Positions 27,598-45,981 of a stretch of DNA of 64,000 bases are shown here, piece by piece. The position numbers and the translations under genes were made by a program. The stretch is from IMG/VR virus record IMGVR_UViG_3300008216_002531, positions 41,626 to 105,625 of that record; one strand, 5' to 3'. The notes below the pieces were generated by a model. The model had not been told where the DNA came from. It saw only the letters and a program-made list of their open reading frames with translations, and did no database searches. Positions within the stretch are counted from its first letter, which is position 1, and each line of letters opens with the position of its first letter. This DNA comes from a virus.

Positions 27598-27882
27598 CTA
27601 AAAGTCAAAAAAAGCTACGCACTGTTCGCCTTCTTCTGTGAACCGCATACTGCAAGACTTGTTCATGAATTTAAGAAGCTCTTCGGGCGATAAACCTTTA
27701 ATGATGTAGCTACCTTCAGTATACTTTTTCTCAAAACTTGTGACGTGTAAATCTCCAGTTTTGGAGTGAGAAGCTCTTGCAGAAGCAAGATCGCTACTGA
27801 AAGAATTCCATTCTACAGAAACTGTTACTTCGTTGTCAAACGTTATTTCAAATCCGGTCTTGTCTTTAAACACTTGAAACAT
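27598..27882 (-). CDS. Hypothetical protein
   Basis: ORF fits operon packing. Confidence 0.45.
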   Translation of the reverse strand: MFQVFKDKTGFEITFDNEVTVSVEWNSFSSDLASARASHSKTGDLHVTSFEKKYTEGSYIIKGLSPEELLKFMNKSCSMRFTEEGEQCVAFFDF

Positions 27883-29578
27883 TGTTGGGCATCCATGGTG
27901 GTCTTGGCTCTTGAATCATTCCTGTTCGTCTTTGTTCCCAATAATTTTTGCGATCACGAATTTCTGATAATTGATTATAGGCCTCTTGCAAGTTGAATTC
28001 CCTAAACGCCGGTCGTCCGTATGCATAAGAATCTTCGTTAAAGTACAAACTACTGGTTCCTTCTATAAATACTCCATAATTCAGATCTCTAATCAATCTT
28101 GCTTCAAGATAAGTATCAAGTTGTTCTGGCTCTCCTAAAACATTGATAATGAGCCATTTAGCTAAATCTCTATTATTCAGATCACTTGGGACCGAGTTAG
28201 ACGGAGAGTGCAGTCTGGGTGGAGATTCCCAGATACCTTCTTTAATTGGGACTGAGTCAAAATGGTCTGCCCATTTTTTTGCTGTATCATCGTATTGATA
28301 ATGTTTTATGAATCGTTTTCTGGTTTTTTTCCCAAGCGAGGATTGCTTTTCATCCGTTAATTCAAAAAATTCTTGGAACTTTTTAGCAGTATAGTCATTG
28401 TCTGGAATAGCCCTTATGCAACCAGTTTCTAATTCCAGATATTTTGTTTTTAGTTTAAGAGGTTCTCCTCCGAGCTTTCTTATGACACTATGCATTGCGG
28501 AATAATCCACAGACATCACTGGGACTCCGCAAGCGGCAGCTTCTACTTGGGGAAGACCGAACCCTTCGCTGTTCGCATACTGTACGTATAAATCAAACGT
28601 ATTTATTATCTTAGCCAAAAACTCTGGAGATGCCCCTCTTTGTACATTAGCCAATCCAGATTTGAATTCTCCACACCGTGAGCATTTAGAAACCGCGTCG
28701 TGGAAAAACGATGGAAAAATATGCCCACAGGCCTCACAAACGTAAGTAAAAATTACTTTGCTACAAAGACCATATTGTTTTAATAGCTTGGGAATATCCC
28801 AGCCAACGTCAGGATAGCTAGTGTGACAATATAGAAAAACGTCGCTATTGTTGTACGAATCTAGAAACTTCCTAAAGGCATCAAACAAATCTGGAAACAG
28901 CTTTCGTCGCTGATTCCTCATTATAGTGCCTATTATTTTTGCGTCTGGGCTTAAATCCAGAGATTGCCTATTTTGGATTTTGTCTACAGTAGGCTTGTAC
29001 ACTTCGTCAGCAGAAGGTGGAGCGCTACCTAAGCAACTGATGGAACCCCCTCCTTCTTTAGCTAGAGTTTTCACCGCCCAATCAGAATATGTAAATACCG
29101 CGTCGGCATTAGCATAAGTAGTTAGCCATTGTTCATTTTGGCCTTCCGCGTCTACCGTTGGCATTATGGCCCAATGAAACAAATTGCGGAAAGGAGATCT
29201 TTCCTCAAATTCTAACATCCAGAAGTCTCTTATGTCAAAAACAATATCCGGCTTAAAGTCTAAAAGAACTTCTTCAAATCGCCATTCGCCAAATTGGTAT
29301 ACTCCGTTTGAGTTATACTTATTGGTAGCTTCACGGTTGTCGGGAAGTGGAGCGTTGGGATATGTTGTCCAAGGAATCTCTTGTAGGCGAGGTTCTTTTG
29401 GATGCGCATATATAGATAGCTCCGCAAGCTCGTACTTGTCGGAGCTATACAATCTTTTCATAACCTCTCGGCCATACGTAGCGTAGCCTGTGTTTAAAAA
29501 CGAGGCTTCGTTACATAGAAGTATCCTCTTTTTCCTCACGATAATATTTTCTCGTTCTTTGTATGATTTTTCGAACAA
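27866..29578 (-). CDS. GT4 glycosyltransferase with zinc-ribbon insertion
   Basis: TGYA, RNQRRK, EGFGLPQVEAAACG; CEACG...CSRCG insert; true start probably GTG at 29539. Confidence 0.85.
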   Translation of the reverse strand: MFEKSYKERENIIVRKKRILLCNEASFLNTGYATYGREVMKRLYSSDKYELAELSIYAHPKEPRLQEIPWTTYPNAPLPDNREATNKYNSNGVYQFGEWRFEEVLLDFKPDIVFDIRDFWMLEFEERSPFRNLFHWAIMPTVDAEGQNEQWLTTYANADAVFTYSDWAVKTLAKEGGGSISCLGSAPPSADEVYKPTVDKIQNRQSLDLSPDAKIIGTIMRNQRRKLFPDLFDAFRKFLDSYNNSDVFLYCHTSYPDVGWDIPKLLKQYGLCSKVIFTYVCEACGHIFPSFFHDAVSKCSRCGEFKSGLANVQRGASPEFLAKIINTFDLYVQYANSEGFGLPQVEAAACGVPVMSVDYSAMHSVIRKLGGEPLKLKTKYLELETGCIRAIPDNDYTAKKFQEFFELTDEKQSSLGKKTRKRFIKHYQYDDTAKKWADHFDSVPIKEGIWESPPRLHSPSNSVPSDLNNRDLAKWLIINVLGEPEQLDTYLEARLIRDLNYGVFIEGTSSLYFNEDSYAYGRPAFREFNLQEAYNQLSEIRDRKNYWEQRRTGMIQEPRPPWMPNNVSSV

Positions 29579-30005
29579 TATGCTTAATTTGTCCTTTTGG
29601 ACAAGACAGTTTTTCGGCTATCTCTTTGTGTGTATAGTTTTCGGACTTCATTTTTAGTACCAATTTTTCTTTTTCGCTCAGGCAATCTGGTATTAATTCC
29701 CACAACTCTTCTTTTGTTGTATACCAGTTATCTTTTTTGAATGAGGCATTTACAGACTTCTTTTTGTTTTTCCTCATATACCTAAAGATTTCATTCCTTA
29801 CGCAAACAGTGGCAAAAGTAGAAAATTGGCTTTTTTCGGAATCATAATTTCTTATGGCTTTTATAAGACCTATGAAGCCCACTTGCATGTAGTCTTCTAG
29901 ATCGTTTTTGTGAGAAGCCAATCGAATAGCCTGAGAAACAACCAGCCCATAATGCTTATTGACTAGCTGACTCTCAGGATCTTCGACTGGATTTTCATAT
30001 GTCAT
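29511..30005 (-). CDS. Phage sigma-70 family sigma factor
   Basis: Region 2 EDYMQVGFIGLIKAIRNYD..KSQFSTFA; region 4 LSEKEK...YTHKEIAEKL. Confidence 0.85.
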   Translation of the reverse strand: MTYENPVEDPESQLVNKHYGLVVSQAIRLASHKNDLEDYMQVGFIGLIKAIRNYDSEKSQFSTFATVCVRNEIFRYMRKNKKKSVNASFKKDNWYTTKEELWELIPDCLSEKEKLVLKMKSENYTHKEIAEKLSCPKGQIKHIVRKIIQRTRKYYREEKEDTSM

Positions 30006-30392
30006 TTAAAATGGGGCGGCGTCAGATCGCGCTTGTGAAGTTACTGGTTCTCGCTCTTCATTATCGTTTTGAAATCTATTATTGAAAAGCTTGAATTTAT
30101 TTACTCGAAACTTAATCTTAGATCTACGATTTCCATCCTTATCCGTCCACTTGTCTTGGCGAGCGCAAGCCATTACAGCTATTTCGTCTCCCTTTGAGCA
30201 GTATCTATCAATTGTAGTCGCTCCGCTATCCCAAGCCTCAAAATCAAGATAATCGACTTTCTTGCTCTTTTCTCCATCTTTTGATTTACGATACTCGTTA
30301 ACAGCGAGGGTGAACCTAACTACCGAAGTTTCATTAACATCGGTAAGCTCTGGGTCTTGAACCAAGCGACCTATAAAGTGACAATTATTCAT
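30006..30392 (-). CDS. ssb: Single-stranded DNA-binding protein
   Basis: N...FIGRLVQDPEL, FTLAVN, KGD, W.DKDG; C-terminal APF. Confidence 0.9.
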   Translation of the reverse strand: MNNCHFIGRLVQDPELTDVNETSVVRFTLAVNEYRKSKDGEKSKKVDYLDFEAWDSGATTIDRYCSKGDEIAVMACARQDKWTDKDGNRRSKIKFRVNKFKLFNNRFQNDNEEREPVTSQARSDAAPF

Positions 30393-30395
30393 TCT

Positions 30396-30971
30396 CTAAA
30401 GTCCTTCCATTAAAAAAGCCAAGTGGATTAACTCGTAACCCTTAGATACATTCTCTTTGTCTGCTAGATCTAAAAACTCATTCGTAAACTCTGGGTAAGC
30501 CGCATAAAATATGTCTACTAATTTTTCCTCCAGCAACACTTGTTTTTCGTCATTTGGTGGTTTGATTAAATCAATAAAAGTTGAGTCAGGACCAAGTTCT
30601 TCTCCTTCTACATTGTAGTAGATAATAAACTTCGTCGAGAGTTTTAATCTCTCTGTTTTCATCAGAATGTCTTGAAAAATAATTATTCTAGAGGCATAGG
30701 CAGGACAGTCGATGAATACTGGCTTGGTGCTTTCTGAAGAATAATAATGTACGCCTGAAGGCAGAGGGTCTTCTTGAATCTGATATATGCAAATAGTTTC
30801 TTGTTCGTCTTGATCAACAGTTTTTTTAAGAGGGAAAGTAACAGCGCACCCAATGCCATCAAAATCAGAGGCGACGACTTTGACAACATAGTCGTGTTCT
30901 TTGAAGAAATTTACGAGCGCCTGATTATCCATCCTGTAACCTATAAAACGCGCAAGGGGCGTTTTTTGCAC
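30396..30971 (-). CDS. Hypothetical protein
   Basis: ORF coupled to dnaE-C stop. Confidence 0.5.
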   Translation of the reverse strand: MQKTPLARFIGYRMDNQALVNFFKEHDYVVKVVASDFDGIGCAVTFPLKKTVDQDEQETICIYQIQEDPLPSGVHYYSSESTKPVFIDCPAYASRIIIFQDILMKTERLKLSTKFIIYYNVEGEELGPDSTFIDLIKPPNDEKQVLLEEKLVDIFYAAYPEFTNEFLDLADKENVSKGYELIHLAFLMEGL

Positions 30972-32656
30972 TATATTTGGGAAACTTTTTGCACAATAAA
31001 ACCGTCGTCGATCTGGTATCGCCTCTTACCACGAGACAATTCCCCGGAGGACTTTCCGTAAAGCAAAACTGTATTGCCCTCATACAAAAGCCCTTTGTGT
31101 TTTTTCCATTCGTCGCAAAACACAGTCACTGTTTCTAGACATCCGGTATTGTCCTCCACAACCAAGAACCCCATAGGGCTTCCTTTTGACCGTCCATTTT
31201 TTACAACATACTCATTAACATTAGAAACTTGCACTGCTAAAATTATATTACCACGTTTGCCGTCAAAAAACTCTTTACATGTGGAATTTGACCCGCTCGC
31301 ATCACAAGAGTCTACTTCGCTGTAGCTTAGCGCTATTCCCAAAGTTTCTTTTTCTATATTGGACACCCACCCCGGACTATCTTCCAAGGAATAAGGAGGA
31401 TTTTTCAATAGCAGAACTAGACTTTCAACAATAGAGTTTCTTGTGGTGTTAAATGTTCCACCTCCATTCTTTTTGGTGGGAGACAGTTTAGACAAAGCGT
31501 CGGCTAGACACTCCCACTCCTCCTGTCTCTCAACCACCCACTCTTTCTCCTTATCTGTTAGTTTCTGCCATGTTTCAAATTCGTACAACATCCTGCTCCT
31601 ACTCATGCCAAAATGGGACATGGACCCCACAGACACAAGAGAAACCATTATGTTTTTATTGATTTTATGAGACGTATTGACTAAAAATTGATACCATGAC
31701 CAGTCTGCTATTGGTTTTGATAGACTGCTCTCCACGGAGTCTATTACTTGTATCAATTTTTCCACATGTTTTTCTCCAACAGATTTTATATCGTTGAATC
31801 CAAAGTTTATGACTTTATTTCTAATGCTAAACTTGGAATCCATATTGACGACAGAAGGAGGGGAAACTTGTATGCCTGATATTTTAGCATCCCTTATTAG
31901 ATCTCTGACTTCAGACTGGGGATCTTGTTTTCCATTAGCGTAAAATAAATAGTTACAGTAGAAATTTATAGGAAAATGGGCCTTGGCGTAGGCTGACCAG
32001 TAGGCGCAAACAGCATAAGAAACTGCGTGGCTTTTGTTAAAAGCATACCGGTTGGACTTTTCAATCCATCCAAAAATTTCTTCGGTCACTTCGCTAGTAA
32101 CGATTCCTTTACTAGAGGCTCCTTCTAGGAAAGACTCCTTTACTTCTGACATGAGGCCAGCTTGTTTTTTGCCGATAGCTTTTCTCAAGCCGTCTGCTTG
32201 TTGCAAATCAAAGCCCGCTATAACCTGAGCTATTTGCATGCTTTGTTCTTGATATACTAGCACCCCTTGAGTAGACTTTAGGATAGGCTCCAAGGAATCG
32301 TGTAAATATGAAACCTCTTCCGATCCATTTTTTCTGTCTACATAGTGCTGTGTCATTGACTTGCCGTCAATAATAGCTTTTAGACATCCCGGTCTAATAA
32401 GAGCAATAAGAGCGGCTAACTCCTCAATGTTTTTAGGGCGGATTCTTTTTGCCCAAGATTTTCCCAAATTACTTTCTAGTTGAAATACACCTTTGGTTCT
32501 CCCGGTAGATATCAAATCCCAAGTCTTGTCACAATCGTAACCGCATTGGCTGATGTCAAAGCGAGTAGACGGCAATCCGGTTTGCGACAACGTGGTCGGG
32601 TGATCTGGGTCTAGAACTTCAAAAGAACACCCGCAATCAAATTCGTAGTTTTTCAT
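30971..32656 (-). CDS. dnaE: DNA polymerase III alpha, C-terminal half (fingers, HhH, OB)
   Basis: GVFQLES, ALIRPG, VYQEQ, ADGLRKAIGKK, YAFNKSHA, IKSVG, EKETLG; likely start MKNYEF. Confidence 0.92.
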   Translation of the reverse strand: MKNYEFDCGCSFEVLDPDHPTTLSQTGLPSTRFDISQCGYDCDKTWDLISTGRTKGVFQLESNLGKSWAKRIRPKNIEELAALIALIRPGCLKAIIDGKSMTQHYVDRKNGSEEVSYLHDSLEPILKSTQGVLVYQEQSMQIAQVIAGFDLQQADGLRKAIGKKQAGLMSEVKESFLEGASSKGIVTSEVTEEIFGWIEKSNRYAFNKSHAVSYAVCAYWSAYAKAHFPINFYCNYLFYANGKQDPQSEVRDLIRDAKISGIQVSPPSVVNMDSKFSIRNKVINFGFNDIKSVGEKHVEKLIQVIDSVESSLSKPIADWSWYQFLVNTSHKINKNIMVSLVSVGSMSHFGMSRSRMLYEFETWQKLTDKEKEWVVERQEEWECLADALSKLSPTKKNGGGTFNTTRNSIVESLVLLLKNPPYSLEDSPGWVSNIEKETLGIALSYSEVDSCDASGSNSTCKEFFDGKRGNIILAVQVSNVNEYVVKNGRSKGSPMGFLVVEDNTGCLETVTVFCDEWKKHKGLLYEGNTVLLYGKSSGELSRGKRRYQIDDGFIVQKVSQI

Positions 32657-33317
32657 CGGCCAGAGCCTTTTCAAATTTTACCTTGGGAGCAAAATGTCTA
32701 TACAGCTTAAGAAATTTTATCAGGACAGACGCGGTATCTTTCACGTCTTGCAGAGCGTCGTGCGCATTGTCTTTAGGCATTCCCATCCAATCTCTAATAG
32801 AATCCATGCTGACGCTTCTTATATCTGGATTGTTTTCAGTCCACATGAATACATTATTCATTAAGTCCATACTATGGATAGTGTGAAACAACCCCTGCTG
32901 GTTTCTTTTTTTATTCATAGGACCGTATTCTCTACATAAACGATTTGCGATAATCATATCGAAATTATTTATATTGTGTCCGGCGGGTATTGGAGCCGTC
33001 CAACTACCCTTTTTATAATTAAACCTGTCTACGAATTTAGTAAATCTATCCCACACCGTTTTTAAATGTGGGGCTTTTGCTAATTCGGCTCTAGTTTTTC
33101 CATTTACAGCTAGGGCCTCTTCTTCTAAGGGGTCTAATCCAGCAGCTACCGCTTTTTCATCCCCTAGTGGCTTGATCAGAGATTCAAAATATCCATTAGG
33201 TTGTACAGACAGTCTACGACCGTGTATCATTACGGCGGCAATTTGTACTGGTTGAGTTGTCAGTGGGTTTCTACTGCCTGTTTCAAAATCAAACACACAG
33301 ATATCATTATAATTCAT
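32637..33317 (-). CDS. DEDDh 3'-5' exonuclease (DnaQ-like)
   Basis: FDFETG, GHNI.NFD, HDALQD. Confidence 0.85.
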   Translation of the reverse strand: MNYNDICVFDFETGSRNPLTTQPVQIAAVMIHGRRLSVQPNGYFESLIKPLGDEKAVAAGLDPLEEEALAVNGKTRAELAKAPHLKTVWDRFTKFVDRFNYKKGSWTAPIPAGHNINNFDMIIANRLCREYGPMNKKRNQQGLFHTIHSMDLMNNVFMWTENNPDIRSVSMDSIRDWMGMPKDNAHDALQDVKDTASVLIKFLKLYRHFAPKVKFEKALADEKLRI

Positions 33318-34407
33318 CTACAGAGTCCTCTTCTTTTTCAACTAAAAATTCCATCTTATTATTGAAATCTTCAAACGATAGATCTCCATATCTTAGTGTT
33401 TGGCGAGAAAATAATTTGTCATATTTTCCTTCTGCAATAAGCGAGGCCGCACAAGCAGCGCCATATCCTGTGCAACGCTGCATGGCTGAAAAGTTTTCGT
33501 CTGGCGGAACGAGTAGTTCTTGAATTTTTTCATCAATAGATATGTAGATAATAACACAGTCTTCTACTTGATGTTTTGCACAACTTTTTGTGAAGATCTT
33601 TTTAAGAGTTGGTCGATCCAGTTCGCATTCTTCGATTAGCAACTTAATGGTTTTGAGATGTCCCGGCCACCTAAGAGTCTTATATGAAACATGAGTAGCT
33701 CCCAAGTTTTTAAGGCTGTGGACGCTATAAGATGATCCCCCGCTTGTATAAAAAGCTTCTAAAACCCCCAAGCTCTGAGTGGAAACAGTTTCATAGCCTT
33801 CTAGAGACTTAACAGAAGTTATCTCTCCGTTATTTAAGATTGTAGAGTTTTCTGTGTATTCATTAATAAGGCCATCAAGAGACCAGCTACAAAAATAATT
33901 AAAATGATCGTCTTTAGAAGCTCTTCGAGGTAGTCCTCCAACCATTATATTTACTGTTTTTGGTTTTTTTTCATCTTCTTCGGCAATCTGCTTGTATAGA
34001 TTTTCTGTAAGTATGTTTGCTAATCCGGGGGCCAAGCCTAAATCTGTCATTACTGGTTTAGATCCGTTGCTGACAGCAAAGCTATTAATATATTCGCTTA
34101 CTTCTTCATTGCCACCAAGATCACAATATCTAATTCCATTCTTTATGCAATATCTAGCAACATCTTTGTTGTTGTAATATGGGAGAGCAGAAATCACAAC
34201 GTCTGGAAAGGGTCGGGATATTGATTTTGATATGTGGCCTTCTAATTTTGGGATACAATGTGTTTTTGCCGATTGGCTTAAAAAAGAATTGCATTTGTCC
34301 AATGCTTCTTGAGATAGGTCTACTAGTTCTAGCTCGTAGCCAAGTCTTTCCATAGCCCAAGCCGTAGATTGACCCATTCTTCCAGCACCAAAAATAATAG
34401 CTCTCAT
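33307..34407 (-). CDS. Lysine 6-dehydrogenase / saccharopine dehydrogenase family
   Basis: GAGRMG, SALPY, DLGGN, GLAPG, VGGLP, WS.DGLINEY, LEAFYTSGG, YKTLRWPGH, AMQRCTG. Confidence 0.85.
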   Translation of the reverse strand: MRAIIFGAGRMGQSTAWAMERLGYELELVDLSQEALDKCNSFLSQSAKTHCIPKLEGHISKSISRPFPDVVISALPYYNNKDVARYCIKNGIRYCDLGGNEEVSEYINSFAVSNGSKPVMTDLGLAPGLANILTENLYKQIAEEDEKKPKTVNIMVGGLPRRASKDDHFNYFCSWSLDGLINEYTENSTILNNGEITSVKSLEGYETVSTQSLGVLEAFYTSGGSSYSVHSLKNLGATHVSYKTLRWPGHLKTIKLLIEECELDRPTLKKIFTKSCAKHQVEDCVIIYISIDEKIQELLVPPDENFSAMQRCTGYGAACAASLIAEGKYDKLFSRQTLRYGDLSFEDFNNKMEFLVEKEEDSVDEL

Positions 34408-35243
34408 TGTACCGCTCTCCCCTTAAGTTCTTCCCAATCTTTTTCTGGCCTAACCACCAAGTTGGTGTCCCACGCCCCAATTAGAGTGTTGGGAGATATT
34501 CCAAAGTCTGCTGCGTGTTTTATGATAGCGTTGAGATCTTTTGGAAAACAACTTCCGCCGAACCCCAGACTTCCATCTGGGCCGGGAACCGACCAGTGAG
34601 AGCCTCCCAGTCTCTCGTCGTGTATAGCATACTCAATCACCTTGTCGTAGTCAACTCCGTTCGCTTCGCACATAGCGGAGAATTCGTTTGCTAGCGACAC
34701 TTTAGCCGCTAAGAAGCAATTGGTAAGATACTTAACATACTCTGCTATAGTTGAGTCTGTTTTTATAATAGAAGCCTTCGGAAAGATGTTGGCGTAAAAT
34801 TGCTTTAGTCTTGTGGTGGCTGGTCTAGGGCCACCCAGAATAACACGGGTAGTGTTACGAAAATCTTCCGCCGCGTTTCTTTCTAGTAAGAATTCTGGGT
34901 TGAATACTACTTGAGAGTCTTGGCACATCTCATTAATAAAGGAGGTGGTGCCCGGAGGAACTGTAGATTTAATAACTATGATATTTTGTCTGCCAGTTCC
35001 ACACGCTTCCAAACAAACAGTTTTTACGATTGAGGTATCGCACGATCCATCTAGCTTCATTGGTGTTGGAACACATACAAACACCACGTCGCAATCATGG
35101 GATAAGTCTGTTATTGTTTTATGCGTTGATAGATCTGCATGTGCTTTATCATAAGTGTATACCTTATTGTAACAAGAGAAGACTTCGGTCAGCGCCGACC
35201 CTACAAACCCCTGTCCTATTATTCCTATTGCTCTTATTTTCAT
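34404..35243 (-). CDS. UDP-glucose/GDP-mannose dehydrogenase family, short form
   Basis: GQGFVG, CVPTP, KSTVPPG, FNPEFL, GFGGSCFPKD; lacks C-terminal domain; start MKIRA by ATGA overlap. Confidence 0.85.
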   Translation of the reverse strand: MKIRAIGIIGQGFVGSALTEVFSCYNKVYTYDKAHADLSTHKTITDLSHDCDVVFVCVPTPMKLDGSCDTSIVKTVCLEACGTGRQNIIVIKSTVPPGTTSFINEMCQDSQVVFNPEFLLERNAAEDFRNTTRVILGGPRPATTRLKQFYANIFPKASIIKTDSTIAEYVKYLTNCFLAAKVSLANEFSAMCEANGVDYDKVIEYAIHDERLGGSHWSVPGPDGSLGFGGSCFPKDLNAIIKHAADFGISPNTLIGAWDTNLVVRPEKDWEELKGRAVQ

Positions 35244-36448
35244 AGATTTTCTACAGCCTCTTTTATATATTGACACGCTACATCCGCGTCCTCTTTAGAG
35301 AATGTAAGAGCGGGTCTAAGTCTAATTGATCTACTGCCGCATTTTAATACGAGCATATTTTCTTGTAACAACTCTACCATTCTATCTCGAAGTTCTGAGG
35401 ATGGCAGATCAAACGCTATCATGAGTCCTCGCCCCCTTACATTGTCTATTTCGCTTATACTTCTAAGACACCATAATAAATGAGAGCCTACATCGCTAAC
35501 ATCAGCAATCAAATCTTCCCTGTTGATGGCATCTACTATATAGTTAAATCTAACCATATCAACTATATTGCCACCCCATGTAGAATTTATTCTGCCACTA
35601 GTATTGAAGACGTTGTGTTTTACTTCATCAATTCGTTCAGTAGAGCAGAAACCACACACCTGAGTCTTTTTGCCAAAGCACATCATGTCAGGAACAACGT
35701 CGAAATGTTCGTAGGCCCACATCTTGCCAGTTAGCCCCATGCCAGTCTGCACTTCGTCAAATATAAGAAGACACTCGCGCTCATCAGCTATGCGTCTTAG
35801 ATTTTTGAAAAACGCTACCGGAAAATGATTATCTCCACCCTCACCCTGTATCGGCTCTATGATAATCGCAGCAACTTCTTCGTGGACACGGCGTTCGATG
35901 TCTTCCCAATCAGGCTCTACGGTAGTCCATCTAAACTTTGGGAACAGGGCGGTCTTTTCTGGGGTTGTATTGGTCAAAGAGAGTGTGTAGCCTGTCCTGC
36001 CATGAAAAGCGTTCTTGAGATGGAACACATCTAGGTTGTTAATATCAACCGTATGGATATATTTTAGTTTCTTGGCCTTCCAGTCAAATGCGGCTTTGAG
36101 GGCGTTTTCTACCCCAAGAGCGCCACCATCAATGAAAAAGTAGTGTTTAAAATCAGGAGTAATTTCAGAGAATTTCTCTACAAATTCAGCATAAGTACTG
36201 GAATACATATCACTATTAGCAAGCTTAACTCTTCCAGCCACGCCCATTTCGTTTTGTGCTTTTATTAATGCAGAATGTCCCCACCCCAATGGCTGACTGG
36301 CAAATTGTGAATAGCAGTCTAAGTATTTCTTTCCTGTGTTTAAGTCTATAATATAAGAACCAAGGCTCTTCTGTTGGTCTACGACTACATGAAAACCGTC
36401 AACAAGTATGTGGTTCTTTAGCGTGTCTATAGCTTTAATGTCAGGCAT
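35240..36448 (-). CDS. lat: L-lysine 6-aminotransferase (class III PLP)
   Basis: HILVDG, ANSD.YS, GALGVENALKAAFDWK, AFHGRTGYTLSLTNT, EPIQGEGGD, DEVQTG, FGKKTQVCG, INSTWGG. Confidence 0.9.
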   Translation of the reverse strand: MPDIKAIDTLKNHILVDGFHVVVDQQKSLGSYIIDLNTGKKYLDCYSQFASQPLGWGHSALIKAQNEMGVAGRVKLANSDMYSSTYAEFVEKFSEITPDFKHYFFIDGGALGVENALKAAFDWKAKKLKYIHTVDINNLDVFHLKNAFHGRTGYTLSLTNTTPEKTALFPKFRWTTVEPDWEDIERRVHEEVAAIIIEPIQGEGGDNHFPVAFFKNLRRIADERECLLIFDEVQTGMGLTGKMWAYEHFDVVPDMMCFGKKTQVCGFCSTERIDEVKHNVFNTSGRINSTWGGNIVDMVRFNYIVDAINREDLIADVSDVGSHLLWCLRSISEIDNVRGRGLMIAFDLPSSELRDRMVELLQENMLVLKCGSRSIRLRPALTFSKEDADVACQYIKEAVENL

Positions 36449-37227
36449 TTAACCGCTCCTCCCGATTTCATAAATTCTGACATATCGCATATAGATGTCT
36501 TTTTACCAGAAAACGATAAGGAAAACATATCTGATGGGGTCACAACCGTCTTATTTATTTCAATACTGTTACAAAGAAAGTCTTGCGCTTGCTCTTCATG
36601 AACATTTAATACGTCAAGAACTCCTATTTCATGGCCGATCTCCATTAGCTTTTCCAAAATTCTTTCTTGGCTGAACCTAGAAAAGGCTTGTTGATGATAA
36701 ACAACTCTATTTTTCAAAGGAAGAAAACATGTGTCCAAATGATAGAATCTTGGATCAACTAATTCACAGGACACGACATCAACTTTGAGAGTTTTTGAGA
36801 TAATTTCGTGGGCTTCCGGGTCAGTTCTAAATCCATAGCCCATGAACAGGGTATTTTCAAAAAATAGGGCGTCTCCCTCTCCCTCAAAGCAAATGTGGTC
36901 TGGGATTTCAATTACTCTATAGCCGTGTTTTAGAAACCAATCTTTAAAGAACCACTTCTCGTCTCGTCTTTCCTGATGTCTAAAATTTGATAATATCACT
37001 GTGTCTCGGTATACTAGTCCTGCGTTTGCGGTAAATACCATGTCGGGGTATCCACGCTCAGGCTCAATAAAGCTCAGTCTGGCTCCCGTTTTAGACAAAA
37101 GATCAACCATTTTCTCCCACTGGGAAAGAGCTAGGGCGGGATCGATATCATTATCAATATCCATCCAAGGATTGATTTCGTAGTCTATATTAAAATATGT
37201 TGGTTTACACAGTAAAAGATCTGTCAT
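36427..37227 (-). CDS. Amidinotransferase/guanidino-modifying enzyme, ArgZ/AgrE arginine dihydrolase-like
   Basis: YEINPWM, PDMVFTANAG, ER..E, FEGEGD, GYGFRT, FYHLDTCF, EFMKSGGAVKCLT; start MTDLL by ATGA overlap. Confidence 0.85.
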   Translation of the reverse strand: MTDLLLCKPTYFNIDYEINPWMDIDNDIDPALALSQWEKMVDLLSKTGARLSFIEPERGYPDMVFTANAGLVYRDTVILSNFRHQERRDEKWFFKDWFLKHGYRVIEIPDHICFEGEGDALFFENTLFMGYGFRTDPEAHEIISKTLKVDVVSCELVDPRFYHLDTCFLPLKNRVVYHQQAFSRFSQERILEKLMEIGHEIGVLDVLNVHEEQAQDFLCNSIEINKTVVTPSDMFSLSFSGKKTSICDMSEFMKSGGAVKCLTLKL

Positions 37228-38714
37228 TTGCTCCCGGTGCTCATACCTTGTGGAAAGTTCAGAGAGTCTCCATGATTGACCGTCCAAGCCACTTCATGAG
37301 TAACGGACCTGAATGTACGAGCGGCGCTGGGCTGTCCGTTTCCAGACTTTTTCACCCCTCCAAATCCAAGATGAGATTCAGCAGCAATACTGCCGCCATT
37401 CCAGTAGCCAAGACCAAAATCACATTCGTTGCGAATGCGTCGAGCAACCTTAAAACTTTCTGTTACTACGCCAAGAGCAAGCCCATAGTCAGTGTCATTG
37501 TAAATCCTAATAGCATTATCAATTGTATCGTAAGGAATAATTGACACATGCGGCCCGAATACTTCTTGCTTAAGATATGGAACATCTCTCCACTCCGTTT
37601 GATATACCGTGGGTGTTAAAAACAAGCTATCGCCATCTCTCTCTCCCATTAGCAGAACATCCGCCTCTGGGTCCGCTTCGACCATCTTGTTAAACTCTAT
37701 GACTCTTTCGAGTTGCTTTTCATTAATAAGAGGGCCGTAGAAGGTGTTGTCGTCGAATGGGTCTCCAGTCTGTAGATCACCACTTCTATTGGCAAATTCG
37801 TCTGCAAATTTGTTGTATAGAGAACGATGAACAATTAGCCTGCTAGCAGACACACAACGTTGACCAGATAGTTTGTAAGCACTAGCCAAGCACGCGGCCA
37901 TTGCCATGTCATAATTCGCATCTTCATGAACAATTACTGCCGATTTACTTCCCATCTCACAAGAACAGGTTTTGTGCCAGCTTTCCGCACAGACTTTACG
38001 AACATGCATTCCTACGTCGGCGCTTCCAGTGAAGCAAATATGATCCACGTCTTCGTGAATTAGATCATCTCCGACTTGTCCATCCCCATGAATCATATTG
38101 AAAACGCCCGGCGGAAAACCAGCTTCTCTGTAAAGCTCCGCAGTAATCTGGCCAACCCAAGGTACATCCTCGCTCGGCTTAAGAATTACAGTATTCCCTT
38201 CAACAAGAGCAGGAGCAGCGCACCAAAAACCACCAATCGCAAAAGGAAAATTAAAAGGCGCAATGATCGCAACGACCCCTTTTGGCTTCCTAAGCATAAA
38301 CGCATCTTTTTCTGGCAACTCCGAAGCAATCGCTTCACCATAAGGCATCCTCCCTGTACTAAAGGCATACTGAGCCATGTGCAACGCTTCGTTAACTTCG
38401 GCAACAGACTCGTTAAAAACTTTTCCTGTTTCTGTGCTTATAATTTCTGCAATATGGTCTTTGTTTTCTTCGATTAACTTTGCAACCTTAAGAAAATATT
38501 CTGCTCGTTGAAATCTGCTAAGACTTCTCCATTCACCAAAGGCCTTCTTAGCGGACATATAAGCGGTTTCTACGTCCAGCAGAGATGCTTGCGGAAAAGC
38601 CCCCACGATTGTTCCTGTGGCCGGATTAATACTGTCAAAAAGAGACTCTTCGTCTCCATCAATGAATTGACCATCAATGTAATGTAATCCCTTTACGATT
38701 TGATAAGTTGTCAT
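37224..38714 (-). CDS. Aldehyde dehydrogenase (aminoadipate/glutamate semialdehyde type)
   Basis: PFNFP, KPSE, FTGS, EMGSK, SGQRC, EVFGP, FGGVKKSGNG. Confidence 0.9.
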   Translation of the reverse strand: MTTYQIVKGLHYIDGQFIDGDEESLFDSINPATGTIVGAFPQASLLDVETAYMSAKKAFGEWRSLSRFQRAEYFLKVAKLIEENKDHIAEIISTETGKVFNESVAEVNEALHMAQYAFSTGRMPYGEAIASELPEKDAFMLRKPKGVVAIIAPFNFPFAIGGFWCAAPALVEGNTVILKPSEDVPWVGQITAELYREAGFPPGVFNMIHGDGQVGDDLIHEDVDHICFTGSADVGMHVRKVCAESWHKTCSCEMGSKSAVIVHEDANYDMAMAACLASAYKLSGQRCVSASRLIVHRSLYNKFADEFANRSGDLQTGDPFDDNTFYGPLINEKQLERVIEFNKMVEADPEADVLLMGERDGDSLFLTPTVYQTEWRDVPYLKQEVFGPHVSIIPYDTIDNAIRIYNDTDYGLALGVVTESFKVARRIRNECDFGLGYWNGGSIAAESHLGFGGVKKSGNGQPSAARTFRSVTHEVAWTVNHGDSLNFPQGMSTGSK

Positions 38715-39235
38715 TTTGAGTCCTTTGTAGATTCCATTAAATTTTTCACTGAGTTTTGACAGAAGCCCTTTTGGCCTCGCTCTATTAGCTCTATGATTAC
38801 CCCGCCTAGATGTGGCAGAGGTTTTGTAAATATTTGCCTGAGTTCATCTTCAGGACAGTCAATAATTTCTTCCGTGAGAAATTCTACCCCATTATCTCGC
38901 CAGTCTTTTACTACGCGGTCTATTCCAAACACTTGATATGCAAAATGGTGCACTCCTCCAACGCCTCCCCTGTCGGCCACCCATTGCCCCACAATCGAGT
39001 TCTCGTCCCCGTCTGATATAAACACTTCTGGAGCAACATGTCTGTGTCCTCCAGCCTCTATGGTGGGAACATTGTTCATTTTTTCTTTAGGGGTCATCGC
39101 AATACATTCAGCCTTGGAGCCGTCATCGAAAACGATATCGAACTCAGTTCCAATTTTATACTGGAGTATTGCGCTGAGAAAGCTAGCGGTTTTTTGTCTA
39201 TCTGAAACTCTATAGGCTATATGATCCAATCTCAT
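38711..39235 (-). CDS. VOC-family protein resembling HPPD C-terminal catalytic domain
   Basis: LDHIAY, GVHHFAY.V, GVEFL, LRQIFT.P, IELIER...GF. Confidence 0.7.
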   Translation of the reverse strand: MRLDHIAYRVSDRQKTASFLSAILQYKIGTEFDIVFDDGSKAECIAMTPKEKMNNVPTIEAGGHRHVAPEVFISDGDENSIVGQWVADRGGVGGVHHFAYQVFGIDRVVKDWRDNGVEFLTEEIIDCPEDELRQIFTKPLPHLGGVIIELIERGQKGFCQNSVKNLMESTKDSK

Positions 39236-39459
39236 CTATATAGCTTCCTTTTTATATCTACGTACTGTTCTACAGCTTTGTTAAGATCTTCGTATAATTG
39301 ACTGAACTTAAATCTATAATCGTCGCAGTCCACTTGATATCGGGCGCCTCGGGCGCCTGAATTGCGCAAGTAGTCATTTATGCAGCACAATGACAGTCTA
39401 TTGCACTCAACTGATGATCCATCTTCTAGCACTCTTGTATAAATATCTGTTTTGGTCAT
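39232..39459 (-). CDS. Hypothetical protein
   Basis: ATGA-coupled on both sides. Confidence 0.6.
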   Translation of the reverse strand: MTKTDIYTRVLEDGSSVECNRLSLCCINDYLRNSGARGARYQVDCDDYRFKFSQLYEDLNKAVEQYVDIKRKLYR

Positions 39460-41375
39460 TTGATTATTCCGGTAGATAATTGATTAGATACTCCCATGAT
39501 TTTATCCAGAAAACTGATGCCAAGAATATCAAATTTAACATGGCCCATCGCCTCCAAATCTTGCATCTCCAAACCCGCGATCTTTTCAGATCCTCTTTTT
39601 TCCCTAACCATTGGACACACTTCGCTTAAGTTTTTAGAAGAAATCACTACGCCAGCCGCATGCTTACCTTGAGATTTATATGTTCCTTCAAGCCTAATAG
39701 CTTGCCCAAACAATCTGCTTAATTCCCCGCTAAGACTGCCATCGTCTTCTATACGACACCATTCTTTAAGTTGTTCTGGTTGGTTTATCAAAGCCCATCT
39801 TATAATAGAAGGGTCTTCCATTTCTTGTAATTGGTCTGAAATTTCTGCTTCAGATGGAATATTTTTGGTGATATAGTTCATCTCTTCAAAACTGCAAGCG
39901 TCGTGTACGCGCAGAACTTCTTTCAGAGATGTGCGACCTTGCATTCGCCCAAGCGTCACCATTTGCCCCACATTCTCTTTGCCGTATTTTTGACGCATAT
40001 ACTCAATAACGCGCGCTCTTTTTTCGGTGGGGACATCAATATCAATATCTGGAAGAGAAACATGGTCTTCGGTATTACGCCCAGCATTGTAAAATCTTTC
40101 AAAGATTAGACCGTACTCTATTGGGTCTACCTCTGTTATACCAATCAAGTGTGAAATAAGGCAACCTGCGGCAGAACCTCTTCCCGGTCCCGGCAGCCAG
40201 CCCTGCTCCCTTACATGGTTTACTATGTCTTGAACTATAAGAAAATATCCTGACAAATTTGCATCCTGTATAACCGAGAGTTCCTCTTTGATTCTTTCGG
40301 CATATAATTTCGAATTAGTTTCTTCTGACGCCTTGCCAGTGTCGGCTATTTTACTTTGCCAGCCATGTCTGCATAAAGATCGTAAATATTCATCTTCAGA
40401 CATATTGTCCGGGCAAGAAAATTTAGGGAGCATGGGTTTGCCTAATATGTTGTATTCTTCGCACATATCAGCAATTAGCTTGGTGTTGTAGATTTCCTCG
40501 TCAGTATTTATAACTTGAATTTCTTCTTCTGAGGGGATGTGATATTTGTTTGAGCAAAAGAAACCGCCTAAGCCAACGTCTTCAGAATTGTTAAGCTTTT
40601 GCTCTACCTTCTTTAGAGTTGTCCGCATCGCAGAACACAAGAGCACTCTTTGGTCTGGGGCGTCTTCAGAGGAGCAATAGTGAGAGTCTGCCGTAGCTAT
40701 ACAGGGTATGCCGGTTTTCTTGCTGATATACCTTAAGGCTTCAGCGGTTATTCTTTGGGAGGGACACTGGTCTTGATCTATCAATTGTATTTCTAAAAAG
40801 AAATTGTCCTTGCCGAAAATGTCTCTATATTTTTCAGCCAGCAGAGTAGTTTTGCTAAGCCAGTCTACATCAATATATTGTTTCGCCTCTTCGTAAGTAG
40901 CCGCACCATAGGCAGACTTTTTGTCAGCAAATATGATATCTGCAAGTTGGCTTCCTATATGTCCAGAAAAGCTAATTAAATTTCCGTCACAGTATTCGGC
41001 CAGTGTGTCCAGATCTAATCGTGGCTTGTGGTAAAAGACTTCCTCGTCATTGCTGGCAGAGGTAGCTTCTATCAGCTTTGTCCAACCCTCTAGATTCTTA
41101 GCCAGAACTACCAGATGACTAAGCTTCCTATTGGTTTTATCTTTTACGCAGGGGTCTTGGTCACATAAATAAAACTCGCAACCTAAAATGGGTTTTATAT
41201 TTTTTTCTTTCATCGCCCTGACAAACGAGACGGCCCCTGAGATCGTCCCATGATCGGTCACGGCGCATGCATCGTACCCAAGGTTCGAGCAGCGTTCTGC
41301 GACCTGTGAGGGCTTCGAGAGACCGTCCAGCAAACTGTAGTGGGTGTGCAAGTGTAGAGGAGTCCAAATTGGCAT
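39456..41375 (-). CDS. dnaE: DNA polymerase III alpha, N-terminal half (PHP + palm/thumb)
   Basis: HLHTHYSLLDG, TDHG, GCEFY, DSHY, GRGSAAG, FERF, PDIDID, HAAGVVI, KFDILG. Confidence 0.93.
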   Translation of the reverse strand: MPIWTPLHLHTHYSLLDGLSKPSQVAERCSNLGYDACAVTDHGTISGAVSFVRAMKEKNIKPILGCEFYLCDQDPCVKDKTNRKLSHLVVLAKNLEGWTKLIEATSASNDEEVFYHKPRLDLDTLAEYCDGNLISFSGHIGSQLADIIFADKKSAYGAATYEEAKQYIDVDWLSKTTLLAEKYRDIFGKDNFFLEIQLIDQDQCPSQRITAEALRYISKKTGIPCIATADSHYCSSEDAPDQRVLLCSAMRTTLKKVEQKLNNSEDVGLGGFFCSNKYHIPSEEEIQVINTDEEIYNTKLIADMCEEYNILGKPMLPKFSCPDNMSEDEYLRSLCRHGWQSKIADTGKASEETNSKLYAERIKEELSVIQDANLSGYFLIVQDIVNHVREQGWLPGPGRGSAAGCLISHLIGITEVDPIEYGLIFERFYNAGRNTEDHVSLPDIDIDVPTEKRARVIEYMRQKYGKENVGQMVTLGRMQGRTSLKEVLRVHDACSFEEMNYITKNIPSEAEISDQLQEMEDPSIIRWALINQPEQLKEWCRIEDDGSLSGELSRLFGQAIRLEGTYKSQGKHAAGVVISSKNLSEVCPMVREKRGSEKIAGLEMQDLEAMGHVKFDILGISFLDKIMGVSNQLSTGIIK

Positions 41376-41376
41376 T

Positions 41377-41928
41377 TCAGCGTCCTACTGGGTCAAGATC
41401 CTTGTATGGCATGTTGTAACAATCTGTGGAAGGTTTCCACCTATTAGAATGATCCATGTCATCCTTTACCCAAAAGCGGGCCTGTTCAAAGTATTCCTTT
41501 GCGTCCTTTTGTCCACAAATCCAAGCCCTGACAGGCTTGTTGTTCTTAAATTGTATACTGGTAAAGATGTATATATCCGGTTTTTGATGCGCGCTGGTTT
41601 CTGCTACAGAAGCATCGTAATGATCTAGAGGAGGCACAGACCTTCTTTTAGATTTGACTTCAATTTTTTTACCGTCCTTTATCAAATCATGATTGTACTT
41701 CTCCTCACCCTCATTATTGCTGATTATCTCGGCTTGGATGTAATCGGCAACGATCTCCTCCCCGAGATAGCCAGCAAAATTCCCCTTGCCCTCAAGGATG
41801 GAATTATTTATCACACCTAAATTATCAGCCTTAACCTTACAACTCTCTACCATTTCATCGGTAAAGTAGACTTGAACAATATTACTTTTTTTTGTTGAAC
41901 TTTTCATAAATGTATCGTGCTGTCGCAA
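41377..41928 (-). CDS. Hypothetical PD-(D/E)XK-like phage protein
   Basis: GYLGE...YNHDL...IEVKSK; start uncertain. Confidence 0.45.
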   Translation of the reverse strand: MRQHDTFMKSSTKKSNIVQVYFTDEMVESCKVKADNLGVINNSILEGKGNFAGYLGEEIVADYIQAEIISNNEGEEKYNHDLIKDGKKIEVKSKRRSVPPLDHYDASVAETSAHQKPDIYIFTSIQFKNNKPVRAWICGQKDAKEYFEQARFWVKDDMDHSNRWKPSTDCYNMPYKDLDPVGR

Positions 41929-42835
41929 CGTCCTCTATCGCTAGTCCTGTGGCGTCGAATAGTGTTGTCCTACATCCGCTAGTTTCTACCCTGCCCTGAA
42001 TCACTTCTGCTATCGGACACCATATTTGAGAAATCTTATTCTTTTTAGCATACTGTATTTCTCCAGAATGGGAGCACTGTGCCCACTCATCATACGCAAC
42101 TAGATCAACATTTTCAAGAACGCACGGATGCAGTTCTCTTTTTCCTTCTGCGTCTGCTCCAACAGCATTAATATGAACTACAGGTTTGAGATATCTATAC
42201 TCAATAAATGGTTGACGTGAAGGGGTTAGCGTTGTAATTATATCCACGTCCCACAAACAATTTTCAAGATCATTATGAACTTCTATTTCTACAGGGCTTC
42301 CCTGCCTAACTTCTAAATAATTCAATTCATCTTTTAACTTATTTGCTCGTTCTTCACTGAGGTCAAATAATCGAACAACCTCAATGTCTCTTACGGCAAG
42401 GACCGCTTCTATCTGCCTGAGTGTTTGATTTCCGCAGCCGATAAACGCTGCTTTTTTGGAATACTTGGGGGATAAGTATCTGGTTGCCACTCCAGTCACT
42501 GCGGCGGTACGAATGGCGGTAAGAGTTTCTCCGTCTAAGATTGCTAATAGTTTTCCAGAAGCCACATCGTTTATAAGAACCTTAGCGAATATGTTAATTT
42601 TGCGCTTTGTTCCTGTTTCGTCTAGGTGTACTCCACACCATTTAATCCCCGCCGTATCTCCTACAACCGCTGGCATAGATCTGAAATCGCCATTAGGTAT
42701 GTCCATATACACTTTTGGCGGCATCTGTGTGTTTTCAATGTTTATAAATAAGTCTTCAACAACTTCTATGCATTCTGGAACTGATAGTATCTGCGCTACT
42801 TCGTCGTTTGTAAAGTATTTAACCGGGAGCATCAT
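41882..42835 (-). CDS. Ornithine cyclodeaminase / mu-crystallin family
   Basis: MPPK, FRSMPA, GIKW, TAIRTAA, GCGNQ, HINAVGAD..GKREL, FDATGLAIED. Confidence 0.88.
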   Translation of the reverse strand: MMLPVKYFTNDEVAQILSVPECIEVVEDLFINIENTQMPPKVYMDIPNGDFRSMPAVVGDTAGIKWCGVHLDETGTKRKINIFAKVLINDVASGKLLAILDGETLTAIRTAAVTGVATRYLSPKYSKKAAFIGCGNQTLRQIEAVLAVRDIEVVRLFDLSEERANKLKDELNYLEVRQGSPVEIEVHNDLENCLWDVDIITTLTPSRQPFIEYRYLKPVVHINAVGADAEGKRELHPCVLENVDLVAYDEWAQCSHSGEIQYAKKNKISQIWCPIAEVIQGRVETSGCRTTLFDATGLAIEDVATARYIYEKFNKKK

Positions 42836-45366: not shown

Positions 45367-45981
45367 TTACTTTTTTCGGGTTTCTTCTTTAAAATCTTCC
45401 AAGTCAATTTTCTGTTGCATTTCTTCATTCAAAGCTTCGTGACGCGCGGCCTGTACCGCTCTTCTTTCACTGTTCTTATATTCCTCAAGTTTTTTTGGAT
45501 TGTTGTATCCCTTTCCTTTTTTTCTCCGTTCCCGTTTATTTTTTTTCTTGTTGCGTGCTTTTATTTCGTCTTGTTGTTGTCTGGTTCTGTGAGGTCTTCT
45601 CTTGTGCTTCTTTTCCGTAGCTCGATCTGCTATTATAGAACTAAGAACACCATTCGCTTGGGCTAAAGTTCTTTTCACCCCTTTTCCGAAAAATTCGATC
45701 CTGACATGACAGCTTTTACACAGGACTAATAAGCCATCTAAGCTTTTTCCAGATAGGTTTGATTCATCGTAGTGGTAGTGGTGTATTTGGGCTTGTTTGC
45801 TCTTTAAAGGTTTTGCACCACAAGCAACACATTCGTTACCTTCATCTTTAATCAGCCGGGATCTTATATCTTTCCACAAGGAGCTTCGTAGGTACTGTTT
45901 ATAACTGTCAAACCCCAACCATTCTAGAGTTTGGTCTCTAAGGTAATACTCATTGCATATATGATTTATTTTCGTAGCCAT
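45367..45981 (-). CDS. HNH endonuclease with basic C-terminal tail
   Basis: YL.S..W..IR, CVACG, IHH, LCKSCH. Confidence 0.75.
   Translation of the reverse strand: MATKINHICNEYYLRDQTLEWLGFDSYKQYLRSSLWKDIRSRLIKDEGNECVACGAKPLKSKQAQIHHYHYDESNLSGKSLDGLLVLCKSCHVRIEFFGKGVKRTLAQANGVLSSIIADRATEKKHKRRPHRTRQQQDEIKARNKKKNKRERRKKGKGYNNPKKLEEYKNSERRAVQAARHEALNEEMQQKIDLEDFKEETRKK

Follow-up and report, generated by a model that had tools for sequence, protein, structure and literature searches.

The locus described here raises the question of whether a replicative polymerase gene that stops in mid-protein and resumes 6.8 kb downstream can still supply one working enzyme, and how its two products would be brought together. 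Pol III alpha (DnaE) is the textbook single-chain bacterial replicase; in the window analysed, a stretch of 64,000 nucleotides (nt) from an uncultured marine phage, corresponding to positions 41,626 to 105,625 of IMG/VR record IMGVR_UViG_3300008216_002531, it is encoded by two genes, called here the N-half and the C-half (coordinates are those of the window):

39456..41375, minus strand: DnaE N-half, 639 amino acids; PHP, palm (catalytic aspartates of PDIDID and KFD), thumb and first fingers helix
30971..32656, minus strand: DnaE C-half, 561 amino acids from an ATG; fingers (nucleotide-binding motifs LRKAIGKK and FNKSH), HhH and OB fold

It is very probable that the two proteins form a non-covalent two-chain Pol III alpha that is the phage's only replicative polymerase, with the gap between the genes serving as a cargo slot. 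Under this proposal, DnaE is made as two polypeptides that would assemble without covalent joining, the N-half bringing PHP, the three catalytic aspartates and the thumb, and the C-half the nucleotide-binding fingers, HhH and OB, so that neither half alone would hold a complete active site.

Both open reading frames (ORFs) carry the parts of DnaE that an earlier, sequence-only reading of the window had assigned to them, and the Pfam matches agree. The N-half matches PHP (PF02811, 4e-38) and the Pol III alpha palm (DNA_pol3_alpha, PF07733, 2e-70), contains SLPDIDIDVP and KFDILG, continues with ...KFDILGISFLDKIMGVSNQLSTGIIK and ends in ...NQLSTGIIK at a TGA stop that shares bases with the ATG of the next gene (ATGA). 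The C-half matches DNA_pol3_finger (PF17657, 1e-46), HHH_6 (PF14579) and, weakly, OB (PF01336); read from the ATG at 32656, it begins MKNYEFDCGC...DKTWDLISTGRTKGVFQLES (N-terminal letters MKNYEFDCGCSF). The ORF lister had used a TTG at 32674, six codons upstream, yet the ATG is most likely the start, the same form having been recorded by gene callers on 14 contigs. PHP, palm, fingers, HhH and OB are present across both halves in DnaE order, and of the NCBIfam DnaE profile NF004226 the N-half accounts for positions 6-567 and the C-half for 581-1046; what is lacking is the continuous polypeptide, as the reading frame is closed after ...STGIIK and the C-half has an ATG of its own 6.8 kb further downstream. 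Alignment to E. coli alpha, for which solved structures exist, gave complementary coverage: the N-half corresponds to residues 5-563 and has 15 further residues, and the C-half from its residue 33 onward corresponds to E. coli residue 584 onward. The break thus maps by alignment to about E. coli residues 578-583, ~20 residues beyond the palm/fingers boundary and after the first fingers helix; its earlier placement at the palm-to-fingers linker was right as to the neighbourhood of that boundary but not as to the exact point. PDIDID and KFD are invariant in 14 N-halves and LRKAIGKK and FNKSH in 14 C-halves (alignments to 41-55% identity). From knowledge of E. coli alpha, we take the former to be the three catalytic aspartates and the latter to be the fingers motifs for the incoming nucleotide, so that activity would require both chains.

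To assess how widely this architecture is shared, about 250 loci of relatives from IMG/VR were compared in samples of 28, 80, and 150, which overlap in part. Among the first 28 (N-half identity 50-90%), all informative loci were split with an exonuclease gene in the gap, except L018, which has a fused DnaE of 1144 amino acids (L018:9977-13411) with the exonuclease gene upstream, and L027, a short fragment with the same exonuclease-upstream gene order. The 80 further loci recruited by C-half alignment were all split with the exonuclease gene between the halves (80/80), and the 150 recruited by fused-protein alignments comprised 135 split in the same way, five fused and ten incomplete (135/140 informative). 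In the protein database, stand-alone C-halves form >120 clusters, mostly from ENA and Tara marine data, and fused relatives form about 47 clusters at 45-55% identity, the next step down being bacterial DnaE at about 36%. No GenBank phage was matched by Megablast with the 10.4-kb stretch, and the best protein identity among these phages was 35%, so that no cultured phage is a close relative. As a separate observation, the N-half on one contig (L024:3205-4927, shared with L059) was matched as two pieces in different frames, as might result from a frameshift, from an error in sequencing or from a small insert with a stop.

The window derives from a metagenome assembly, and an assembly artefact or a pseudogene might be suspected for that reason; the probability of either is negligible. 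The identical N-half protein occurs on 6 independent contigs and the identical 561-residue C-half on 14, and the stretch is present in twenty marine metagenome runs from 17 studies. Contigs from runs besides the likely source (30847-38229, 38334-40612, 38831-40849, and 32553-33806) match with zero differences and bridge both junctions, and the layout is common to hundreds of diverged relatives.

Both halves are, by their substitution rates, under strong purifying selection: the ratio of nonsynonymous to synonymous divergence (dN/dS) is 0.036 for the N-half against L001 and 0.047 for the C-half against L002, where dS is unsaturated, and other pairs gave dN of 0.11-0.23 with dS saturated. Two split relatives rated 100% complete by CheckV (161.5 kb and 150 kb) contain exactly one DnaE palm domain and no PolA or PolB match; a beta clamp was not detected in either genome. 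The lack of a detected clamp, and with it the probable use of host replisome parts in any case, would suit an alternative in which the halves no longer make up one polymerase, one or both having taken on a separate role or one being in decay, and the genome is replicated by host Pol III. We consider this unlikely, since all catalytic and nucleotide-binding motifs are kept to about 40% identity under that selection, the halves always co-occur in one operon-like block, and their predicted interface is that of intact DnaE.

That interface comes from a model of N-half residues 320-639 with C-half residues 1-400, the complex that the sequence-only reading had suggested modelling, which scored 0.79 in ipSAE (interaction prediction score from aligned errors) against 0.01 for the best control, a mark that 58 of 80 solved complexes attain, as do 2 of 110 mismatched pairs. 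Contact agreement between runs was at least 81%, and the partner pLDDT (predicted local distance difference test) was at least 83. The contacts place N-half residues 621-638 on C-half residues 207-243 and C-half residues 12-36 on the N-half tail, and the helix at the end of the N-half (about 620-638) is accordingly drawn, in the model, as a tether predicted to dock in the groove of C-half helices 207-243. Because single-chain structures of the family have been solved, the model can be taken to show that the halves remain compatible with one DnaE, but not as evidence of binding.

Several points weigh against a two-chain enzyme and should be set beside this evidence. The pass of the complex model may reflect memory of those solved single-chain structures, and the support for two-chain assembly is of two kinds, sequence and model. 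There is no RNA run among the listed runs with the stretch. The window covers 64 kb, and the statement that DnaE is the only polymerase draws on relatives of a different sub-clade (53-55% identity). Finally, the exonuclease gene is not adjacent to the C-half in five contigs, and coupling of the two is thus not obligatory.

The halves could also be united after translation, by a cryptic and very small split intein or by another ligation acting on the N-half tail and the N-terminal extension of the C-half, which is variable and Cys-rich; relatives in the family do have inteins. Covalent joining of this kind is nevertheless very unlikely. No intein or Hint family was found by Pfam in the N-half or the C-half at E<=0.01, in agreement with the earlier remark that the termini lack intein signatures, and the N-half tail beyond the homologous linker and the extension amount to <45 residues, far below the size of a Hint fold. 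In split relatives without the extension, the ends sum to a normal linker length (53-62 residues from KFD to QLES, compared with 49-59 in fused relatives), and no conserved Cys, Ser or Thr follows a conserved Asn or Gln at the would-be junction. The inteins of relatives, for which the family PF14890 is recorded, lie at five other sites and never at the break; two N-halves with inteins elsewhere (P0043 and P0050) end at this same break. We read the cut as having cleanly broken a linker of normal size, in which a Hint fold would not fit. More broadly, seven relatives (P0005, P0011, P0027, P0032, P0043, P0044, and P0050) have inserts at about five other DnaE positions, with an intein family recorded for six of the seven; the insert of P0032 has no intein annotation.

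The extension itself comprises about 28-32 residues, and the four Cys to which the sequence-only reading drew attention are present in the window as C8, C10, C38, and C42. Their conservation is another matter: two split groups have C8xC10 as well, as do 32 of 75 further C-halves, and C42 also occurs in many fused relatives, but C38 is missing in L001, the closest relative, and in L005. The extension is absent from an entire split sub-clade and from about half of the 75 further C-halves. A conserved Cys4 zinc clasp was considered and rejected, as only the CxC and one further Cys recur and a whole sub-clade has no extension; a conserved Cys4 site of any kind is unlikely on this distribution. Because that sub-clade is split without it, the split does not depend on the extension.

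Phage replication genes often contain introns or other intervening elements, and a single-chain DnaE would be restored if the halves were rejoined in RNA or DNA, be it through an intron, programmed excision or ribosomal bypass. This is extremely unlikely here. Rfam gave no match at E<=1 in 30000-42000, and so no candidate for an intron that would rejoin the mRNA, an element that had been named beforehand as fatal to a two-chain enzyme. What fills the gap are protein-coding genes that are conserved and under selection, the exonuclease gene among them; it has no recombinase and no flanking repeats beyond chance; none of the contigs from four DNA runs has the halves joined; and in every lineage the N-half ends at a stop of its own and the C-half begins at its own start. 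One direct repeat of 17/20 matching positions (D1), between the N-half end and the C-half, was considered as a scar of excision or duplication and rejected: it is at chance level and absent in relatives, and what the N-half tail does align with is the ordinary linker of fused relatives. With no intein or intron found, the same break in hundreds of contigs, purifying selection on both halves, a sole polymerase in complete relatives and a complex model that passes, the evidence favours the non-covalent heterodimeric Pol III alpha that the sequence-only reading had put forward.

Between the halves lie eight ORFs on the same strand, which overlap by 4-64 nt or abut and leave zero intergenic space in the 6.8 kb gap. 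In the order of transcription, they are:

39232..39459, minus strand: orf75 microprotein, conserved; before the exonuclease gene in split relatives and in fused L018
38711..39235, minus strand: cargo gene 1, glyoxalase/VOC-superfamily protein, 174 amino acids (Pfam, NCBIfam)
37224..38714, minus strand: cargo gene 2, aldehyde dehydrogenase, 496 amino acids (Pfam, NCBIfam)
36427..37287, minus strand: cargo gene 3, arginine dihydrolase or DDAH-like amidinotransferase-fold enzyme, 286 amino acids (below NCBIfam cut-offs)
35240..36448, minus strand: cargo gene 4, class-III aminotransferase, 402 amino acids (nearest the L-lysine 6-transaminase family; 468 bits, cut-off 521)
34404..35276, minus strand: cargo gene 5, truncated NDP-sugar dehydrogenase-like protein, 290 amino acids (Pfam, NCBIfam)
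33307..34407, minus strand: cargo gene 6, saccharopine dehydrogenase-like protein, 366 amino acids (Pfam)
32637..33317, minus strand: DnaQ-like DEDDh 3'-5' exonuclease, 226 amino acids (motifs DFE, NNFD, HDALQD)

The block that runs from the N-half to the C-half has ten genes, and because these share a strand and overlap or adjoin their neighbours, they are probably carried on one transcript; scans for promoter and terminator consensus sequences gave counts close to shuffled expectation, with every site inside coding sequence. The exonuclease gene shares its last 20 nt with the C-half start, and translational coupling of the C-half to the exonuclease is probable. The protein matches PF00929 (1e-12) and phrog_192, 'DNA polymerase exonuclease subunit', and its motifs are complete: Exo I (DxE) in VFDFETG, Exo II (NxxxD) in NINNFD, and Exo III (Hx4D) in HDALQD. 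That the DnaQ-like gene directly precedes the C-half, as the first description of the locus had it, is true of the window and most relatives but not of at least five contigs (L155, L158, L238, L257, and L258), which have extra genes in between; because of these the adjacency is common, not obligatory. The N-half has, in addition, nine invariant PHP positions (H8, H10, D17, H42, E67, H87, H139, D230, and H232) spaced as in the metal-binding PHP site of proofreading-competent DnaE1, the first five at a constant offset of 6 from M. tuberculosis numbering; judging from these residues, PHP may have exonuclease activity in addition to the DnaQ-like partner.

Homologs of orf75, a type of microprotein of about 60-80 amino acids with an S-x-C-C/LSLCC motif, occur immediately upstream of the exonuclease gene in split clade A and in fused L018 (L018:7947-8195), and orf75 and the exonuclease look like a unit. 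The AlphaFold model of orf75 (pLDDT 86) consists of a helix, four strands and a helix, for which a fold search of the PDB gave no match; Pfam gave none either. The candidate identity of Pol III theta (HolE/HOT) was rejected, since theta is a three-helix bundle of about 76 residues and the model fold differs. The microprotein may be an accessory subunit of the exonuclease or of the polymerase.

The gap is typically far smaller than in the window, about 0.85-0.9 kb, holding a microprotein gene and the exonuclease gene (median about 880 nt at 75 loci; 110 of 135 gaps at 684-1000 nt in another sample). Enlarged gaps of up to 5.2 kb with unrelated genes were seen in many lineages; because of these extra genes, the view of the split point as a cargo-insertion hotspot, for which a comparison of inter-half cargo in related phages had been called for, is supported. 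The cargo includes RCC1-repeat proteins (L022, L104, and L246), uracil-DNA glycosylase (L047 and L123), glutamate dehydrogenase (L123), and, in L155 and L158, an FkbM methyltransferase, a DUF1559 pilin-like protein and ThyX; further gap ORFs in relatives have no family assigned. In the window, L001, L002, L005, and L022, the extra genes follow the microprotein gene and precede the exonuclease gene; in the five contigs named above they lie between the exonuclease gene and the C-half. No homing-endonuclease domain (HNH, GIY-YIG, LAGLIDADG, or Vsr) was found in the window gap or in the scanned gap ORFs of relatives. The 6.8 kb gap of the window's clade is the largest among the loci seen, and its six-gene metabolic cassette occurs only in the window and the three closest relatives (L001, L002, and L005).

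Two side observations concern gap genes of relatives. The gap DUF1559 proteins (L155:10969-11952; L158:10166-11239) have a type-IV-pilin N-methylation motif; the DUF1559 family is typical of Planctomycetes, and this cargo may hint at the host of these relatives. At L099:8305-9690, tandem gap ORFs encode 228 and 229 amino acids, the first being an RNase_T-type exonuclease, and may represent a duplication of the exonuclease gene.

Because both halves would be indispensable, the gap would be a stable slot, with expression timed to replication and contents that differ by lineage; in the window's clade it is filled by a six-gene catabolic cassette of the arginine/lysine type. How the split arose is less clear. 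In a 69-row tree there were two split groups and two fused groups, and approximately unbiased (AU) tests rejected both a single origin of the split (p = 6e-6 overall, 7e-4 for the N part, and 0.011 for the C part, against one split clade) and a single origin of the fused state (p = 2e-6, against one clade of fused phage forms). A 139-row FastTree nested both fused clades among split clades, and, rooted on bacterial DnaE, gave the fewest changes with one split and two re-fusions; the topology was obtained by quick methods, and neither the basal order nor the direction of change is settled by it. The exonuclease gene lies upstream of the fused gene in one fused clade (L018 and L110-L112) and downstream in the other (L029/L183 and L184), and these opposite sides fit two separate events. 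A tentative and rather doubtful reading is that the split is ancestral in the whole aquatic-phage DnaE clade and was re-fused at least twice, the orf75-exonuclease unit being expelled to different sides; the gap would then be a hard-to-lose, replication-timed slot that repeatedly captured auxiliary genes. If this were so, the six-gene cassette would couple the release of nitrogen and carbon to the expression of DNA synthesis. The tree results in any case render the fission and re-fusion of an essential gene testable.

The whole 27.8-45 kb stretch around the split gene has every gene on the minus strand and is a phage replication and nucleotide-metabolism module, with a PD-(D/E)XK nuclease, SSB, a sigma factor, thymidylate synthase, a deoxynucleoside monophosphate (dNMP) kinase, primase, a DnaB-like helicase, a UvsX-like recombinase, and ribonucleotide reductase. 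An ornithine-cyclodeaminase/mu-crystallin-family gene (41882-42835, minus strand) lies two genes upstream of the N-half, so placed that up183, the N-half and orf75 interrupt an amino-acid metabolic set formed by this gene upstream and the six catabolism-type genes at 33307-39235 downstream; the cyclodeaminase gene is also present in L003, whose gap has no such cargo. Elsewhere in the module, an HNH-endonuclease-like ORF (45367-45981, minus strand) lies between the dNMP kinase and primase genes, and a gene for a 570-residue protein with a zinc-ribbon and a GT1 glycosyltransferase domain (27866-29578, minus strand) adjoins the SSB and sigma factor genes in nearly all relatives, whether these have a split or a fused DnaE.

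A very large clade of aquatic phages thus appears to replicate with a two-chain Pol III alpha that has a shared active site and a proofreading gene nested in the cut. If confirmed biochemically, it would show where C-family polymerases can be split naturally without an intein, allow palm-fingers communication to be studied, and provide a case of gene fission as a stable landing pad for auxiliary metabolic genes within a replication operon. Full-text searches found no description of an intein-free, two-gene, full-length DnaE architecture, and the divided C-family polymerase genes mentioned in two surveys of bacteria are all intein-split or fragmented. What is new here is the very large size of the window's metabolic cargo, the inventory of what such gaps contain and the evidence of repeated change between split and fused states.

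The nearest comparison is with single-chain DnaE itself (E. coli 2HNH/5FKU, Taq 2HPI, M. tuberculosis 7PU7, and fused phage L018:9977-13411), which has the same domains, order and motifs; identity of the split DnaE is 45-55% to the fused phage relatives and about 36% to bacterial DnaE, and the phage version differs in consisting of two polypeptides with a cut near E. coli residue 580 and in having the exonuclease gene and cargo placed between their genes. To our knowledge, the sole well-described natural split of Pol III alpha so far is one repaired by an intein. In cyanobacteria, DnaE is likewise encoded in two genes, which lie at distant loci and whose products are rejoined by protein trans-splicing through the Ssp/Npu split intein (Wu 1998; Caspi 2003, as cited in PMC2677866), whereas the phage halves have no intein and lie in one gene block; the cyanobacterial site also lies deeper in the fingers, by about 170 residues, and corresponds to the vicinity of C-half residue 205 (NF007079/NF005616 boundaries). 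The 'fractured genes' of marine metagenomes (Dassa et al., 2009, PMC2677866) are broken phage-type replication genes, DnaE included, with another gene between the pieces, but they involve split inteins and a free-standing homing endonuclease in the gap; the phage DnaE is without an intein, and the scanned gap ORFs are without an endonuclease domain. In T4-like jumbo phages, a minimal Pol III alpha module has been predicted to be reconstituted from two proteins (Iyer et al., 2021, PMC7824862); that module is a stripped-down accessory without PHP and other domains, encoded by distant genes alongside PolB, whereas the split DnaE is full-length and the only detectable polymerase in complete relatives.

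The closest mechanistic analogue is offered by the intein-free split phage enzymes, namely the PolB gp43A/gp43B of Aeromonas phages 25 and 44RR, the NrdA of Aeh1 and the gp39/gp60 topoisomerase of T4 (PMC2988022), in which two polypeptides reassemble non-covalently and inserted DNA lies between their genes. The window agrees with this kind in that two conserved ORFs without splicing elements together cover the enzyme, and joint assembly of the phage halves is predicted by the complex model. It differs in polymerase family, C and not B, and in its inserts, which are its own proofreading subunit and variable cargo, compared with a homing endonuclease or an untranslated spacer in the former; and unlike those enzymes, the split DnaE is the majority state of a very large clade.

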